Below are positions 21,526 to 27,478 of a DNA stretch of 32,000 bases, piece by piece. Origin of the DNA: Chlamydiales bacterium (lineage in GTDB: Bacteria > Chlamydiota > Chlamydiia > Chlamydiales > SM23-39). Under the pieces are notes generated by a model. The model saw only the letters and a list, made by a program, of their open reading frames with translations, was not told where the DNA came from and searched no databases. Position 1 is the first letter of the stretch; every line of letters begins with the position of its first letter. The stretch is taken from assembly GCA_965261025.1 (NCBI GenBank), contig OZ253438.1, positions 810,001 to 842,000 of the forward strand, written 5' to 3'. Both the position numbers and the translations under genes were made by a program.

Positions 21526-22575
21526 TTAAAAGGAGAGAGAAAAGGAAAACTTGGGCCTTCCCAAGGCTGCAGAGGTCGTCGAAGAAGAAACTACTGCATC
21601 CAAAAGAAAGAGCGTAAAGTCGTACCAAGAGTGAACCGCGGTACTTTCTTTTAAGGAATGGTTTTTATGAGTAAGCCACCCAAAATAGCCCCCGAAGACC
21701 GTAATAAAAGGAATAGAAAATAGGTAGTATTTTTTTCTATTTCTTTCGGAAAGAAACTGTGCATTGGGTATATGAGCTGCACCAAAAAGTAGAGAGGAAG
21801 CAATAATTCCTCCCCACGGAGTTAACCTTTCTGAAAGACTAGACTGCAGATATCCTCGAAAAAAAGCTTCTTCTCTCAACCCAACAGCAAAGGCAGAAAG
21901 AACATCCACTTCTTGGCTTCCCCTAATTCTAGCACTACAATCCTTTTCTTTTTCAAAATAGACCAGGTAACTTAAGAGCATCCCCCCTCCTAAAGCTCCT
22001 AAAATTCCTCCCCACACTTCCGGTTTTTTTAGCACTTTGTAGTTGAAAGGAGCATAGCTCAAATCTGCAAAACTATCTTCAGGCATGGGATAAAAAAAGC
22101 CCTCTTGTCGATTATACCTGCGAGCATCTCGATAAGCTGCATACATACCATATTGCCAAGTAGTTGATGCAGTAATTCTCCCTATTCGTATAGAAGGATC
22201 ATGATATTGAGCCTCACTTAAAAAGGCAGTCTTTGAAAAATCTCTTGCAAGAATTTTTCCTAAGAAAAAAGTCCCAAAAAGTTCTCCAGCGGTCCTACCC
22301 TCCCCCAAATAAAGATGCCCCAGCCCTGGTATCAAAGAAAGACTCGTGGCAAGGCCTACATTTTTTCTCTTTAAAGTAGGCATAGAAGCGCTTTTAACCT
22401 CTGAAACAGAGGGAAGTTTTCCAGGAATCACGCTGGAAACACTAGGCTTTATGTCGATCTGTGCTATTTCTTCTATTTCAGGTTCTTCTTTCTCCATTTC
22501 TGGATCTACTGTATTCTCCGCAAAAGCAAAAGAAAAACCCCATATCCAAAAAAGACATCTATATAAGCAACCCAT
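21526..22575 (-). CDS. CPBP-family (CAAX/Abi) intramembrane glutamic endopeptidase with an N-terminal signal peptide and an extra membrane region
   Basis: REEAFFRGYL (EExxxR), FGAAHIPN (FxxxH) and HSWYD (HxxxD) motifs in the C-terminal third. The N-terminus MGCLYRCLFWIWGFSFAFA looks like a signal peptide. Confidence 0.8.
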   Translation of the reverse strand: MGCLYRCLFWIWGFSFAFAENTVDPEMEKEEPEIEEIAQIDIKPSVSSVIPGKLPSVSEVKSASMPTLKRKNVGLATSLSLIPGLGHLYLGEGRTAGELFGTFFLGKILARDFSKTAFLSEAQYHDPSIRIGRITASTTWQYGMYAAYRDARRYNRQEGFFYPMPEDSFADLSYAPFNYKVLKKPEVWGGILGALGGGMLLSYLVYFEKEKDCSARIRGSQEVDVLSAFAVGLREEAFFRGYLQSSLSERLTPWGGIIASSLLFGAAHIPNAQFLSERNRKKYYLFSIPFITVFGGYFGWLTHKNHSLKESTAVHSWYDFTLFLLDAVVSSSTTSAALGRPKFSFSLSF

Positions 22576-22629: not shown

Positions 22630-22706
22630 CAACAGAAATGACCAACCACAATGTATCTCAAGATGCCTTACATGGGGAAGTGGCCATAACAGATGAGCCT
22701 ATTTAA
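22630..22706 (+). pseudogene. 3' fragment of a second dinD-like gene
   Basis: CAACAGAAATGACCAACCACAATGTA.. aligns with dinD 24167-24240. The translation TEMTNHNVSQDALHGEVAITDEPI compares with TEMTNHNVTQDNLLGEPAITKEHI. There is no matching upstream coding sequence, because the CPBP gene start region lies there. Confidence 0.7.
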
Positions 22707-22711
22707 AATAA

Positions 22712-23179
22712 TCAAGCGGTTAAAATGGCATATTCTTTCTCTTCTTTTACTCCCCGTTTCTCCCATTCGTTGGTTAATTGCTCACGGATAGCTATACCGC
22801 GCATCCTTTTTTCAATCCAATCATCTGGATATCCCTTGGCTTTGTAAATAGCTCGGCTCCGTTTTATGGAAAGCTCTGGATCTTCTATCTCTTGGATACG
22901 TTCATAACCTATTTTTGCAAGCCATCTTTTAAAAGCTTCCGCTTTCTTAGAAGGGATAGATTGGATAATCCTAAAAATGGTTTCTGTATTTGCTGTGTCG
23001 GTTTCACGCATCTTTCCATCAGGAGCTTTTAATTTCAACTGTACGGAAAAATCGTACAGTTGACTAAAGCCTTCTTTTTCAACTAATTGAAGTTTTAAAT
23101 CTGACCAATATCTTCGAGGATTAGAGCTTTCTGTTAAAACAGCAATTTTTGAGGTTTTTTCTTCTACTTCATTTGCCAT
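22712..23179 (-). pseudogene. truncated Bro-N/phage-antirepressor-like protein (distant DinD-superfamily relative)
   Basis: The 155-aa ORF VLTESSNPRRYWSDLK..LKLKAPDGKMRETDTANTETIFRIIQSIPSKKAEAFKRWLAKIGYERIQEIEDPELSIKR..LTNEWEKRGVKEEKEYAILT matches, from memory, the middle of a widespread family of about 270 aa annotated as Bro-N domain proteins. The first about 30 aa of the Bro-N domain and about 100 C-terminal aa appear to be missing. Confidence 0.5.
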
Positions 23180-23244
23180 AAACTACCTCTTTGAAATAAC
23201 AGACTGTAAACTTATATTTTAAATAAAAGAAAATAACAAGAAAC

Positions 23245-23433
23245 TTGCCCATGACCGGACGATTATCGAACCAGATATTGGAAGGTATGCGCAAAATTTA
23301 TGAGCTGAAAGCTTTCTTCAATAGAGAAAAACAGCCTTGCTATTCTTACTAAAAGCAAGCTTTTTTCATGGAAAGTCATCCTAAGCTGATATAAGTCCCT
23401 ATAGTATTATCCCCCTTAACAAACCTAGAACCT
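23245..23433 (+). repeat. direct repeat R1 (189 bp) beginning with a tRNA-Leu 3'-end mimic
   Basis: TTGCCCATGACCGGACGATTATCGAACCAG.. aligns with R2 at 24420. The first 95 nt or so are about 85% identical, the middle has diverged, and the terminal CCCTTAACAAACCTAGAACCT is identical. Confidence 0.85.
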
Positions 23434-23461
23434 CCATCTATTATTAGATATACAAAAAATT

Positions 23462-23491
23462 TTGATAAAAAGTTGCTATTAAGTTTATAAA
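23462..23491 (+). promoter_or_regulatory. sigma-70/66-like promoter candidate for dinD
   Basis: TTGATA (23462-23467), a 17-nt spacer, then TTATAA (23485-23490; alternatively TATAAA at 23486-23491). AAGGA lies 9 nt before the ATG at 23529. Confidence 0.35.
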
Positions 23492-23528
23492 GTTACATCC
23501 CAGTTATCCTTAATAAGGAACTTTTACC

Positions 23529-24386
23529 ATGTCTAATAAAGAGATTCTCCAAAAACGACAAAGCCACTTCGATAGTTTAGCCCAATCTACTCCTGAAGAA
23601 AACGTTGAGTTCTGGTTCGCTAGAGATTTACAGGAGCCTCTTGGATATGCAAAATGGGAAAATTTTATAACTGCTATCCTACGTGCCATAGAATCTTGCA
23701 AAACAACAAATTGTGATCCCAACGACCATTTTCGTGGCGTCAGGAAAATGGTCACATTAGGTAGCGGTGCTGAGCGTTCTATAGAAGATTTTATGCTAAC
23801 TCGCTATGCCTGCTATTTAATTGCCCAAAACGGCGATCCTAGAAAAGAAGCTATAGCTTTTGCTCAAAGCTACTTTGCCATCCAAACAAGGAAACAAGAA
23901 TTAATAGAAAAAAGAATGCTTTTACAAACCAGATTAGAAGCTAGAGAAAAGCTTAGAGAATCAGAGAAGACTCTTTCACAAAACATATATGAACGAGGAA
24001 TAGATGAAATGGGTTTTGGTCGCATTCGCTCTAAAGGAGATCAGGCTCTTTTTGGAGGTAACTCCACCCAAAGCATGAAAAACAAGTATGGAATTATACA
24101 AAGTCGTCCTCTTGCTGATTTCTTACCAACTTTGACTATTGCTGCCAAAAATCTAGCAACAGAAATGACCAATCACAATGTAACCCAAGATAATCTACTA
24201 GGAGAGCCTGCTATAACAAAGGAGCATATCCAAAATAACCAAAGTGTCCGAGATATGCTTGCTGAGCGTAATATCAAACCAGAAAATCTCCCTCCAGAGG
24301 AAGACATCAAAAAATTAGAGCGACTTGTAAAATCAGAAGAGAAAAAGCTGATAAAACAGTCTAATAAACTTCCTAAAAAAGTTTAA
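23529..24386 (+). CDS. dinD: DNA-damage-inducible protein D homologue
   Basis: The 285-aa product is collinear with my memory of E. coli DinD. WFARDLQEPLGYAKWENF aligns with WSARQLGKLLGYSEYRHF. LTRYACYLIAQNGDPRKEAIAFAQSYFAIQTRKQEL aligns with [36 protein letters not shown]. Confidence 0.85.
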   Translation: MSNKEILQKRQSHFDSLAQSTPEENVEFWFARDLQEPLGYAKWENFITAILRAIESCKTTNCDPNDHFRGVRKMVTLGSGAERSIEDFMLTRYACYLIAQNGDPRKEAIAFAQSYFAIQTRKQELIEKRMLLQTRLEAREKLRESEKTLSQNIYERGIDEMGFGRIRSKGDQALFGGNSTQSMKNKYGIIQSRPLADFLPTLTIAAKNLATEMTNHNVTQDNLLGEPAITKEHIQNNQSVRDMLAERNIKPENLPPEEDIKKLERLVKSEEKKLIKQSNKLPKKV

Positions 24387-24419
24387 TTACCAAAACCCAA
24401 GTGTTTAACGCTTAAACTG

Positions 24420-24606
24420 TTGCCGATGACTGGACAATTATCGAACCAGGTAATCGAAGGAATGCGCAAAATTTATGAACTAAAGCCTTTCTTAATAGAG
24501 AAAACCAGTCTTATTTTTCTTGATAGAAGCGCATTCTTTCCGTAGAAACTCGTTATCATCCAGTAAAGTTGTCCCAGTGTTGTCTCCCTTAACAAACCTA
24601 GAACCT
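24420..24606 (+). repeat. direct repeat R2 (187 bp) beginning with a tRNA-Leu 3'-end mimic
   Basis: TTGCCGATGACTGGAC-AATTA-TCGAACCAG: 16 nt plus 9 nt are identical to 27129-27153 of the tRNA-Leu gene region, interrupted by a 5-nt insertion in the T-loop equivalent. The rest aligns with R1. Confidence 0.85.
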
Positions 24607-24872
24607 ACTCCCCTTATTTCTGATAGCATCTTTTTTTGACTTTGTTAACTGAGCTTCAATTTCTTGTACAATAGGAAGTTTAGAACACAAGAGTCCTTCA
24701 AGCGTCCCTGGGATACATAGAATAGAGAAAGTTTGAAAATGCAATAAAAAAAGCTCTAACAGCTTTGTAAACAGTCTGGAAATAATCCTAACTATCCCTT
24801 TGTCGGCTCCGACAAACTGATCTCAGGAAGGAAAAATGCTACTCAAATTGTTAGAAGATTAAGTTGCATATA

Positions 24873-25202: not shown

Positions 25203-25274
25203 GGGGGTGAAAGGTAGTTTATAGCACGGCCTCAGATTAAAAGAATTTTTTATTTGAAAAAAAACTCTCTAACC

Positions 25275-25289
25275 ACTAATTTTATTAGT
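25275..25289. promoter_or_regulatory. small palindrome upstream of abiEi (candidate antitoxin operator)
   Basis: ACTAAT-TTT-ATTAGT is a perfect 6-bp inverted repeat 25 nt upstream of the ATG at 25314. It is short and in AT-rich DNA, so this is speculative. Confidence 0.15.
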
Positions 25290-25313
25290 AACTATGGAGA
25301 ATATCTTCAAGTC

Positions 25314-26120
25314 ATGAACATGGAAACATTTCTAGCTCATAACCAGATTTTTACGATTAAAGAGATAAGGTCTGCTCTCAGAATAGAGAAAGGCAATAGC
25401 ACTTTGAATAACTTATTAGCGTATCATCTTCGACAAGGGCATATCGTCCGAATTCGAAAAGGTCTTTATTACACAATTCCTAGAGGAGCTGACGCAAAAA
25501 CCCATCCGATAGACCCTTATTTAATTGCCAGTAAAATGACTTCTGATGCCACCTTGGCATATCATACCTCTTTGGGATTTCATGGAAAGCTGCATTCTTT
25601 ACGAACTGATTTTATCTATATTACTCAGAAAAAATTAAAACCTCCTTTTGTTTTTTGCAACTCCACTTTTAAAAGCATTTCTATTCCCAAAGGAACTTTA
25701 GCTAGCCCCAGTTTTGGCATTGAGATTGTCGATTATCAGGGATGTAAGCTTCGGGTTACTACTTTAGAGCGAACTTTTGTAGATATTCTTGATAGACCTA
25801 CTTTAATCGACAACTGGGAAGAAATTTGGCGTTCTTTAGAATCTATTGAATATCTAGACCTTCAACAGGTTCTTGCATATGCAAGACTTCTAAATAACGC
25901 GACCACTTATGCTCGAATAGCATTTTTTCTTGATCAACACTGTGATACATTTGGTCTTTCAGAAAAAGACTTAGTAAATTTTGATAAATTTATACCCAAA
26001 AGCCCCCACTATTTAGACCTTCATAGTAAAGAGCCTAATCAGCTCATTGCTAGATGGAATCTTATTGTTCCAAAATCATTACTCCAAAGAACTTGGGAAG
26101 AGCCTCATGAAAATCTCTAA
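25314..26120 (+). CDS. abiEi: AbiEi-family antitoxin / transcriptional regulator (type IV TA)
   Basis: N-terminal winged-helix region FTIKEIRSAL..LLAYHLRQGHIVRIRKGLYYTIP, then ASKMTSDATLAYHTSLGFHG and TLERTFVDILDRP, typical of AbiEi. The start is uncertain: the track uses TTG at 25254, and I prefer ATG at 25314. The stop overlaps the next gene's ATG by 14 nt. Confidence 0.75.
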   Translation: MNMETFLAHNQIFTIKEIRSALRIEKGNSTLNNLLAYHLRQGHIVRIRKGLYYTIPRGADAKTHPIDPYLIASKMTSDATLAYHTSLGFHGKLHSLRTDFIYITQKKLKPPFVFCNSTFKSISIPKGTLASPSFGIEIVDYQGCKLRVTTLERTFVDILDRPTLIDNWEEIWRSLESIEYLDLQQVLAYARLLNNATTYARIAFFLDQHCDTFGLSEKDLVNFDKFIPKSPHYLDLHSKEPNQLIARWNLIVPKSLLQRTWEEPHENL

Positions 26121-27082
26121 AGAGCTACTTATTCGAGAATCCAGTCGCACGGGTTTTCGTTTGGAAATATTGGAAAAAGTATGGCACCTAATGAACGTTC
26201 TTGAAGGAATTAATGCCCATCCTTTTCTACAAGAACGTTTGGTCTTAAAAGGAGGCACAGCCCTCAATCTGTTTTATCTTCGATCTTCCTCGTCTATCAG
26301 TTGATATCGATTTAAACTATATAGGGATGCCAGATCGAGAAGGAATGATACAAGAACGCCCTCTTATTGAAAAGGCTATGGAAGCTATTTTTCAACGAGA
26401 AAACCTTATGATACGCCGCATCCCAACCAAACATGCTGGTGGAAAGTGGCAGCTAAAATACCAAGGTGTTCTTGGCAATCAAGGTAACCTAGAAATTGAC
26501 CTGAATTTTATGTTCAGAGTCCCTCTTTGGGATATTCAAAAATGTTCCTCTAAAGTTATTGGTCATCATCAAATACACGGAGTTCGAATTCTTGATTTTC
26601 ACGAGCTAGCAGCTGGGAAATTAACCGCATTATTTGGTAGAAATGCCTCACGCGATTTATTTGATACGCATCATTTACTAACCAATATACAGTTCAATTT
26701 AGAGCGGTTACGGCTAGCCTTTATTCTGTATATCGGCATGAGTTCAATTAAAAATCCTCATGAACTCTCCCCTGAATCACTTTTGTTCGATGAAGCTGAT
26801 TTTCGAAAACAGCTTCTGCCTGTCTTGCGAAATACCAAGAACGAACGTGATCATCAATCTTGGAAAGATATCAAACTTCAAGAGTGTAAACAGGCTCTGG
26901 CCAAACTATTGCCTTTTAATGAACAAGAAGCAAAGTTTTTAAAAATCCTGATTCAAAAAGGAGAAATTCGCCCATCTCTACTTACAAATGAACCCCTCAT
27001 GCAATCTAAAATTGAAAAACTACCTTCCCTTCATTGGAGAGCCTCACTTGTGCAGTCATTACCGAAACAAGTAATTTCTTAG
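26107..27082 (+). pseudogene. abiEii: AbiEii-family nucleotidyltransferase toxin (DUF1814) interrupted by a single frameshift
   Basis: The first frame (26107-26304) gives ..LVLKGGTALNLFY, then nonsense and a stop. From 26279 another frame reads FDLPRLSVDIDLNYIGMPDREG.. and continues to 27082, including AAGKLTALFGRNASRDLFDTHHL. Joining the frames at about 26278 restores the canonical KGGTAL / RxSxDxD / K..R..D.D motif order. Confidence 0.8.
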
Positions 27083-27129
27083 CTAATGACTAAAAAATTC
27101 TATATTTATGAAAAATACTTCTGGAAATT

Positions 27130-27212
27130 TGCCGATGACTGGACTCGAACCAGCACCTTATTGCTAAGAGCAGATTTTGAATCTGCCGTGTCTACCATTT
27201 CACCACATCGGC
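27130..27212 (-). tRNA. tRNA-Leu (anticodon CAA), class II with a long variable arm; CCA not encoded
   Basis: The reverse complement is GCCGATG-TG-GTG-AAATGGTAGA-CAC-G-GCAGA-TTCAAAA-TCTGC-TCTTAGCAATAAGGT-GCTGG-TTCGAGT-CCAGT-CATCGGC-A. All stems pair (one G-U pair in the T stem), the variable arm forms CTTA/TAAG, and the T-loop is TTCGAGT. Confidence 0.9.
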
Positions 27213-27259
27213 AAATGGGAGGACTTTATCATGGAAAGAAAATTAAAGCAAACTCCTCT

Positions 27260-27478
27260 TTAAGATCCTTTTATAGAAGATTCCCGCTCTTCTTCCCATT
27301 TATAAGGGGCTCTTTTTTGAAGTTTCGGAGTAGTATAGGGATAAAAAACGTCCTTGTCCCCCCTTTCAATAAACTCCCCTTTTGCCTTTTCCCTTTGGAG
27401 TCTTTCCTTTTTAGAAAGCTCTAACTCACTGCAAGAGAACAAGAAAAGACTCATGCCCAGAAAATAAAAAAACCGCAT
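27260..27478 (-). CDS. small putative lipoprotein (72 aa)
   Basis: MRFFYFLGMSLFLFSC has a signal peptide with a lipobox-like LFSC, followed by a charged tail. GGGAG lies just upstream, though the spacing is short. Confidence 0.45.
   Translation of the reverse strand: MRFFYFLGMSLFLFSCSELELSKKERLQREKAKGEFIERGDKDVFYPYTTPKLQKRAPYKWEEERESSIKGS

Follow-up and report, generated by a model that had tools for sequence, protein, structure and literature searches.

Introduction

Why should dinD, in the 32-kb stretch of Chlamydiales bacterium contig OZ253438.1 analysed here (the whole of which is called the window), stand between two direct repeats that each join a tRNA-like segment to a short reading frame? 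These repeats, R1 (23245..23433, plus strand) and R2 (24420..24606, plus strand), were described in an earlier reading of the letters (the sequence-only reading) as sharing a modified tRNA mimic and a possibly coding 5′ segment, and as the possible signature of an uncharacterised cassette-type element. Here, we propose that R1 and R2 are probably the far-end junctions of large serine recombinase (LSR) islands, which were inserted successively at the 3′ end of the resident tRNA-Leu(CAA) gene. Related loci and contigs are designated by L-numbers, and the proteins of the tail-peptide clusters described below by P-numbers.

Results

The repeats carry the tRNA-Leu(CAA) 3′ end interrupted by 5 nt

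A repeat search and MAFFT alignment bear out that R1 and R2 are real direct repeats bracketing dinD, with 85% identity across the first 74 nt and 70-81% across the remainder, and a weaker homology runs ~12-25 nt past these ends, to ~23455 and ~24630. Read on the minus strand, both repeats end in CTGGTTCGA-(TAATC/TAATT)-GTCC(G/A)GTCAT(G/C)GGCAA, which is the last 25 nt of tRNA-Leu(CAA), interrupted by 5 nt behind the T-loop TTCGA. The common 5-nt insertion relative to the resident tRNA, as noticed in the sequence-only reading, is present in both copies, the interrupted tRNA segment having no mismatch to the tRNA in R2 and two in R1, and the number of such matches expected by chance is 0.00 according to dinucleotide shuffles of the window. 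Two further conserved blocks, of 21 nt and 17 nt, are within the window confined to R1 and R2. The resident tRNA-Leu(CAA) gene (27129..27213, minus strand; ARAGORN; Rfam tRNA, 59 bits) is the sole tRNA gene of the window.

As the minus-strand 3′ end of R resembles the T arm and acceptor 3′ strand of tRNA-Leu, R could be thought a tRNA-derived structured RNA, a mimic or small RNA, made from that strand. However, this explanation is effectively refuted and scarcely deserves any credence: ARAGORN and Rfam (E≤10) find only the real tRNA in the region; R1 and R2 have unlike minimum free energy folds (z-scores, -1.0 and -1.5), and no shared or unusually stable structure was seen on either strand; there is no 5′ acceptor strand to pair with; and the substitutions track the codon phase of the plus strand. 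What had been called a tRNA mimic is only the 3′ 15-16 nt of the tRNA, here the crossover core, joined to a half-site of the element.

The same site marks the far end of islands in other Chlamydiae

One genome per species was scanned for the 25-nt 3′ end of the tRNA, and gaps of 0-6 nt were permitted; this gave 106 loci, nearly all from Chlamydiae, every exact match being an ungapped tRNA. By blastn of R against these 106 loci, R-like sequences were found 1.4-4.6 kb from the tRNA in L061, L066, L033, L063, and L086, and in three pieces in L093, and a pattern scan of metagenomes found 20 more contigs with interrupted-motif junctions besides the L107 contig again. R-type sites located 1.4-9.4 kb from tRNA-Leu(CAA) thus occur in L061, L066, L033, L063, L086, L093, L107, L115, L116, and L117, all of which share the 5-nt-interrupted sequence (..ATGGTTCGATAATTGTCCGGTCATCGGCA..), and this sequence forms the far end of an island at tRNA-Leu(CAA) in no fewer than 30 other chlamydial contigs. 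Further copies in other Chlamydiae, which the sequence-only reading had suggested looking for, are therefore present, and the conservation of an identical interrupted sequence in distant chlamydial genomes upholds its view that R1 and R2 come from a shared kind of donor and not from two duplications of the resident tRNA gene. A scan of viral contigs for the core sequence found none. One typical far-end junction with an LSR relic, L113 (ENA OOOS01000020.1), comes from an assembly labelled as human oral metagenome, where an element of Chlamydiae type would not be expected.

An LSR gene forms the tRNA-proximal end

On the distal side, the element is always bounded by the R-like site, and an LSR gene forms its tRNA-proximal end. 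In L061, this gene heads toward the tRNA from the tRNA 3′ side and ends in ..EESLSGELPMTGLEPALSCLK, the residues LPMTGLEPA being encoded by the antisense of the tRNA 3′ half. The LSR genes at the tRNA encode the Pfam domains Resolvase and Recombinase, with XisF and Ccr as the closest NCBIfam models. The intact LSR of L096 (534 aa) matches PF00239 (2e-20) and PF07508 (2e-8), and its score of 23 bits for PF13408 (Zn_ribbon_recom) is below the cut-off of 25.3, with the CxxC...YYHCxxxC pattern present. The domain set of an LSR (resolvase, recombinase, and zinc-ribbon/coiled-coil) is thus found in the related loci and not in the 32-kb window, where no recombinase of any kind was detected. Similarity to LSR C-termini abuts or overlaps the tRNA antisense in at least 16 of the 106 tRNA-Leu loci, and a hairpin, ..CCGGTGAA, adjoins the tRNA in ~21-26 of them; when read on the tRNA strand, this hairpin and the following T-run are terminator-like, and the LSR-free sites carry an analogous native hairpin (..CCGAATG..CATTCGGT..).

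Pseudogenes of the LSR were recognised in L061, L088, L070, L040, and L107 (17909-19508 of L107). A TGA stands at a zinc-ribbon Cys codon in L061 (7232-7234), and the other LSR pseudogenes show frameshifts; recoding of a conserved in-frame stop was considered and rejected, as L096 and L098 are uninterrupted at this codon. The pseudogenes usually keep the last 40-130 codons, the antisense of which makes the terminator-like hairpin and T-run directly 3′ of the tRNA, and because of this hairpin the retained LSR 3′ stretch may be kept for tRNA termination.

Junction architecture and a reconstructed attP

On the LSR strand, the far-end site consists of a left flank, the core TGCCGATGACYGGAC, AATTA-TCGAACCA, and then a reading frame. 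In L110, L112, L113, L115, L118, and L126, the left flank is the native tRNA terminator hairpin and matches LSR-free sites, e.g. L090, L003, and L058, so that these are simple B-O-P′ junctions (host half-site, core, and element half-site). In L061, L066, L107, L108, L111, and L122-L125, an older, second LSR contributes its 3′ end as the left flank, a sign of tandem arrays. Both ends of an element lie on one contig, as hybrid sites, in L061, L066, L033, L063, L086, L107, L115, and L117, and the complete one-contig elements range from 1.4 kb (L033) to ~9.4 kb (L107), with a cargo that includes AAA_21/OLD-like ATPases, a SocA/Panacea antitoxin pair, and a ResIII helicase.

R1 and R2 read as hybrid junctions of the same build. 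The core of R1 (23245-23260) is followed by the P′ linker GATTA and TCGAACCAG at 23261-23274, and that of R2 (24420-24435) is TTGCCGATGACTGGAC, identical to the tRNA, and is followed by a P′ half-site (24436-24449) made of the linker AATTA and the motif TCGAACCAG, which resembles the zinc-ribbon-domain (ZD) motif discussed below. The tRNA 3′ end (27129-27155; plus strand TGCCGATGACTGGAC followed by TCGAACCAG) supplies the crossover core and the half-site B′. Of the uncharacterised cassette-type element suggested before, the cassette-like mobile units therefore stand and the new mechanism does not, since the sites are B-O-P′ junctions of LSR islands. Two other kinds of element were tried and rejected: a classical tyrosine-integrase tRNA island with tRNA 3′ duplication and a long P arm, as the recombinase is a serine one, no tyrosine integrase was seen, and the repeat is interrupted after 15-16 nt; and an integron gene cassette with attC, as R has no extended palindrome, IntI is absent, and a tRNA core is the source of the sites.

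When the LSR 3′ end and the far-end site are put together, the reconstructed attP reads ..GTTTGTCCGGTGAATTG followed across the axis by CCGATGACCGGACAATTATCGAACCA.. (also written ..TTTGTCCGGTGAATTGCCGATGACCGGACAATTATCGAACCATTTTG..) and has a perfect 9-bp dyad, ACCGGACAA, at positions 7-15 on either side of the axis between TTG and CCG. In B′, the tRNA half of attB, ACCGGAC and TCGAACCA are directly adjacent, and in P′, which reads ACCGGAC-AATTA-TCGAACCA, an A/T-only spacer puts the distal motif 5 bp further from the centre. In the Listeria integrase (LI), the ZD motif of attB lies 5 bp closer to the centre than that of attP, which has a segment binding the RD-ZD linker in between, and most other LSRs were inferred to show the same shift (Rutherford et al., 2013; PMC3783163). 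The 5-nt "T-loop insertion" would thus be the 5-bp outward displacement of the ZD motif in attP relative to attB, which it fits in both direction and size. Additionally, the codons TTA-TCG-AAC are invariant in the eight copies found by blastn, and the downstream codons vary freely at synonymous sites, in keeping with a constraint on the DNA itself in addition to that on the peptide. Within the LSR coding region, the P′ half-site 11-mer TTATCGAACCA recurs ~110 nt upstream of the core (codons SYRTTP; L107 19355-19365 and L116 ~470), and this internal copy could be chance or an accessory site.

The short reading frame is coding

The frame that follows the far-end site (the tail) spans 44-46 codons, starts in the core (MTGQLSNHFVEGMRKIYELEPFIK..), and has the consensus (L/M/V)PMTGQLSNHFVEGMRKIYELEPFIK(x)ESSLADE(x)KGSKIYKRAV-stop. 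Its dN/dS ratios, calculated outside the core by the Nei-Gojobori method, are 0.05 between intact copies (L066 versus L033 as well as L066 versus L063), 0.21 for R1 versus L093, and 0.27 for R1 versus R2 with the indel repaired. The 46-aa tail peptide, used as a query against 5.8 billion protein clusters, hit 45 clusters (32-81 aa; E 1e-5 to 1e-19), all of them unnamed or hypothetical and the two with an organism label both Chlamydiales, and it has no Pfam or PHROG family. The micro-ORF is therefore a real coding sequence, and both the dN/dS ratios and the peptide homologues support the suspicion that the 5′ segment codes, or once coded, on the plus strand and has been under purifying selection; the third-position bias between R1 and R2 exists because the tail frame evolved under such selection in the donor elements.

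Our recount agrees with the ORF coordinates given before (R1, 23251-23352; R2, 24426-24545; both plus strand) and with 10 substitutions in 22 codons, six at third positions and five synonymous. The 1-nt indel also exists, yet it is better placed at codon 19 of R2 than after the 22 codons where the sequence-only reading had put it; with the indel repaired, R2 reads ..ELKAFLNRENQSYFS-stop, in parallel to the ..ELKAFFNREKQPCYSY-stop of R1. The R1 ORF (33 aa) is a short lineage-specific version of the tail, and the R2 ORF, frameshifted at about codon 19, is followed by a non-coding distal part of ~80 nt. It is likewise correct that the ATG of R2 shares the reading frame of dinD and follows the dinD TAA after 13 sense codons, a relation that is probably coincidental, and that the micro-ORFs have no ribosome-binding site, a Shine-Dalgarno sequence being absent upstream.

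Five of the 45 clusters (P0001, P0003, P0007, P0020, and P0037) extend upstream in frame into ..NEKTGQILFEESLSGE, the LSR C-terminus, and where the site is directly preceded by an LSR 3′ end, a single frame runs through LSR, core, and tail, as expected in an excised circle. In 22 far-end metagenomic junctions (L107-L129), the codon before CCG-(A/C)TG is always TTG, ATG, or GTG and never CTG, and the inner ATG is often ACG. This suggests that integrated elements preserve a start codon for the tail ORF and hints that the tail may also be translated by itself; the tail could act as a part of the LSR or as a separate peptide. In P0036, MPEARIELTTFALRMRCTT stands in frame before the tail ORF and resembles the antisense of the T arm of another tRNA, and this junction may lie beside a different tRNA gene.

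It is conceivable, though rather unlikely, that the tail works as a state-dependent switch, namely that it forms the last 41 residues of the LSR in the excised circle and is detached upon integration, the LSR then ending in residues encoded by the tRNA antisense and the tail perhaps becoming a free 44-aa peptide started at the NTG or ATG of the core. If true, this would be a built-in sensor of the integration state that controls recombination direction or recombinase stability, and could represent the serine-integrase counterpart of integration-dependent immunity or a natural fusion of an integrase with a recombination directionality factor. Still less probable, in our estimate, is that the micro-ORFs of the window are currently expressed small proteins, e.g. 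a directionality factor or regulator, kept for their own sake. The R1 and L093 versions do hold open a frame of 33-35 codons under the low dN/dS noted above, the codon before CCG is always TTG, ATG, or GTG in the 22 metagenomic junctions, and the length and C-terminus (..KIYKRAV-stop) are conserved in the 45 clusters; however, R2 is frameshifted, the tail of the window lineage is shortened and off the consensus after ~24 residues, the partner recombinase is gone, no Shine-Dalgarno sequence precedes the frames, and no Pfam or PHROG match suggests a function.

The window and L093 pair the same arms differently

In its core genes (kinase and regulator), the closest relative, L093, is 77% identical to the window. 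There, the tRNA 3′ end is directly followed by the sequence that flanks R1 on the left in the window and by a full-length Bro-N gene (91-94% identity), and beyond Bro-N come an R copy with a mutated core and then 65 nt (L093 4215-4279) that are 98.5% identical to the flank left of the tRNA in the window. Thus, flankY, left of the R1 core (23180..23244), would be the B half of attB at the insertion of the R1-bearing element, because its L093 counterpart directly follows the tRNA-Leu 3′ end, and window 23136-23274 aligns with L093 3422-3288 at 91.4% across both flank and core. The second arm, flankX, is the 46-nt spacer between the AbiEii stop and the tRNA core (27083..27128, plus strand; ..ACTTCTGGAAAT before TTGCC versus ..TTGTCCGGTGAA before TTGCC), whose L093 match lies beside an R copy and not beside the tRNA; LSR C-termini match window 27102-27164 (tblastn), and flankX is probably the last relic of an LSR 3′ end or P half-site, as far as this weak similarity can tell. 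The same four arms, found in alternative pairing in the two genomes, would be the product of site-specific exchange at the core or of independent insertion of the same units in another order, and since the mobile parts are far more similar than the core genes, the exchange between window-type and L093-type loci appears comparatively recent.

The other side of the repeats can also be traced in L093. A 3′ relic of a YhcG/DUF1016 PDDEXK nuclease gene (24598..24744, minus strand) converges on R2 and is 80% identical to the YhcG 3′ end of L093 (5385-5493; blastn), with 12 of 19 residues identical (BLASTP, E 9e-6) and the family of the L093 gene assigned by Pfam. The full YhcG gene of L093 ends exactly at the distal end of an R fragment, which explains the stub beside R2, and the distal part of R1 likewise passes into a YhcG-3′-like relic of ~20 nt, to ~23455. 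The Bro-N ORF of L093 enters R by 18 nt, and R as a decayed Bro-N C-terminus was considered and rejected, as no frame of R is like the C-termini of Bro-N or DinD and the conservation is on the other strand.

These swapped junctions also bear on whether the units between the cores (Bro-N, dinD, and YhcG/AbiE) are still-mobile, integrase-less cassettes moved by an LSR encoded elsewhere, in a manner like that of cis-mobilisable elements or integrons, with R1 and R2 as live sites for the loss or reshuffling of dinD. The exchange of partners between the window and L093, the identity of the cassette DNA (89-98%) compared with that of the core genes, from which recent movement would follow, the frequency of mini-elements of 1.4-4.4 kb without or with a decayed integrase gene (L033, L086, L115, and L117), and the identity of the R2 core to the tRNA core speak in its favour. 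We nevertheless consider continued mobility unlikely, as no LSR lies within the window, the ACCGGAC dyad is absent from the left half-sites at R1, R2, and the tRNA, the R1 core has two mismatches and the R core of L093 is badly mutated, the surrounding genes are pseudogenes, and LSR excision normally requires a directionality factor. Therefore, the loss or amplification of dinD through R1 and R2, raised in the sequence-only reading, is unlikely except by ordinary homologous recombination between these ~80% identical repeats, the relics having decayed and the recombinase gene being absent.

Alternatively, a single integration event could have been followed by in situ tandem duplication of an R-dinD unit through a replication or recombination error, and in this case, too, the repeat itself is an att junction. 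A second dinD-like 3′ end, an 86-nt fragment further left (22630..22715, plus strand; 76% identical to 24157-24242), suggests repeated dinD units, and the want of an LSR relic left of R2 would fit a duplication. However, R1 is nearer to the L093 copy (88.7% to L093 4096-4210) than to R2 (80-85%), the differences between R1 and R2 are mostly synonymous, as if they had diverged under selection in separate elements, and the spacing of the dinD fragment fits no regular unit, so that we hold such a duplication to be quite improbable.

Gene content between the CPBP-protease gene and the tRNA

dinD (23529..24386, plus strand; DNA-damage-inducible protein D with a Bro-N domain) is the sole intact gene between R1 and R2 and the cargo of the middle unit, and its previous label holds (NCBIfam NF008573, 377 bits versus a cut-off of 242; Pfam Bro-N). 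A sigma-70-like match, TTAACA-17-TATTAT, lies at 23416-23444 (plus strand), in and just beyond the distal end of R1 and 85 nt upstream of the dinD start, and to judge from this consensus match the att scar may provide a promoter for dinD. On the left, a Bro-N gene relic (22712..23179, minus strand), which has a 25-aa internal deletion and has lost its C-terminal 64 aa, has 94% DNA identity to the intact 244-aa gene adjoining tRNA-Leu in L093; it abuts the dinD-like 86-nt fragment, and the CPBP-protease gene follows (21526-22575, minus strand). On the tRNA side, the AbiEi/AbiEii pair (25254..27082) is the cargo of the tRNA-proximal unit, with an intact AbiEi antitoxin (25254-26120, plus strand; Pfam PF13338) and a frameshift-split AbiEii toxin (26047-26304 and 26327-27082, plus strand; Pfam PF08843), and an unknown 109-aa ORF lies between the YhcG stub and AbiEi. 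Seen from the tRNA, the order is thus a first unit of LSR-end relic, truncated AbiEii, AbiEi, the 109-aa ORF, the YhcG stub, and R2; a second of 33 nt, dinD, the YhcG relic, and R1; a third of flankY, the Bro-N relic, and the dinD fragment; and then the CPBP-protease gene. A 112-aa ORF antisense over the tRNA-Leu gene (27086-27424, plus strand), of the kind that gene callers may annotate, is almost certainly spurious.

Discussion

Based on these findings, we propose that the 4.5 kb from the CPBP-protease gene to tRNA-Leu(CAA) are probably a stack of decayed integrative islands, which belong to a family widespread in environmental Chlamydiae and inserted by an LSR into the tRNA-Leu(CAA) 3′ end. 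A complete element has its LSR gene at the tRNA-proximal end, reading through the terminator-like hairpin and the core into the tRNA antisense (..SLSGELPMTG/LEPA..), and at its far end the flank, the core, the P′ half-site, and the tail frame. In the window, at least two elements with YhcG-type left ends would have been inserted in turn beside a Bro-N gene that formerly adjoined the tRNA, an arrangement preserved in L093. Later, the recombinase genes and most of the cargo would have been deleted, leaving dinD, the YhcG stub, and the broken AbiE pair. This proposal builds directly on the observed homology, junction architecture, LSR association, coding signal, and junctions swapped between genomes, from which the order of the insertion events is reconstructed. 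We infer that R1 and R2 are dead sites today, given the mutated core of R1, left half-sites that cannot be recognised, the broken frame of R2, and the lack of a recombinase nearby.

Several points weigh against this interpretation. Left of R1 and R2 there is no recognisable half-site, and left of R2 there is no LSR relic, so that the middle (dinD) unit could stem from tandem insertion followed by deletion or from local duplication or rearrangement. Most of the LSR genes seen are pseudogenes, and a second LSR subfamily, of the L027 type and also found as relics left of the L061 and L066 junctions, ends with a TGA inside the core in a different frame; therefore, the tail-LSR fusion cannot be universal. 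None of the 45 hits in the 5.8 billion protein clusters is a full-length LSR with the tail, and the databases searched, these clusters included, yielded no circular (attP) form, so that attP is a reconstruction. Moreover, given the dyad axis used, the distal motif is 3 bp more distant from the centre than it is in the structure of the Listeria integrase, and it is clear in only one of the two half-site pairs, for which reasons we infer, rather than observe, that the 5 bp are the ZD shift.

For the window, the proposal means that the modified tRNA mimic with its micro-ORF would be an ordinary scar of past island insertions, and that 22.6-27.1 kb would be an island graveyard and not core genome. 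At the level of the family, a tRNA-gene target, a defence and toxin-antitoxin cargo, the replacement of the tRNA terminator by the antisense of the element's own gene end, and a conserved short ORF across the att site would be the common traits. Having short and defined att sites at a conserved tRNA, the intact members are candidate new site-specific integrases, and the att-spanning ORF offers a testable idea of how directionality might be wired into gene structure. The kind of mechanism appears to be a known one, that of an LSR integrative element, most features of which are found in the related loci, and the chlamydial island family with its tRNA target and att-spanning ORF is apparently undescribed; in the literature, we found no earlier description of serine-recombinase islands at tRNA genes in Chlamydiae.

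Among known systems, cis-mobilisable elements (CIMEs) are integrase-less derivatives of integrative and conjugative elements (ICEs), and their tandem accretion is known. The chlamydial stack resembles them in having several recombinase-less units at one tRNA, with repeated att-type junctions between them and a defence and toxin-antitoxin cargo, but its units are much smaller (1.2-2.7 kb), the recombinase is a serine and not a tyrosine one, and there is no sign of current mobility. The archaeal SSV1-type integrase, a tyrosine recombinase, has attP within its gene, and upon insertion at a tRNA gene the integrase gene is cut into two large pieces; attP within the recombinase gene and a tRNA target are thus common to both systems, whereas the chlamydial LSR would lose only a C-terminal tail.

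The LSR systems of phiC31, Bxb1, A118/LI, and SPbeta SprA, as well as XisF and Ccr, share with the chlamydial islands the architecture of Resolvase, Recombinase, and zinc ribbon, the short att sites in which a dyad surrounds the central crossover, and the hybrid junctions flanking the element, and as in LI, A118, and others, the half-site contributed by the element has its distal motif 5 bp more distant from the centre than the host half-site does (PMC3783163). Unlike these systems, the chlamydial islands target a tRNA 3′ end, have an unusually long common core (15-16 nt), and carry a recombinase ORF across the predicted attP. In mycobacteriophages, attB sites overlapping tRNA genes have been reported for tyrosine integrases, and in BPs, Brujita, and Charlie, which show integration-dependent immunity, attP is situated within a gene, at its 3′ end, where it also overlaps the 3′ end of a tRNA, and integration thereby exchanges the C-terminal tail of the protein (PMC9262239). 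With an attP that likewise lies within a gene 3′ end overlapping a tRNA 3′ end, the chlamydial islands have their nearest conceptual parallel there. However, those phages use a tyrosine integrase, the split gene encodes the repressor, and the lost tail is a degradation tag (PMC9262239), whereas in the chlamydial islands the gene crossing the site encodes the serine recombinase itself, and the 41-aa tail separated from it is strongly conserved.

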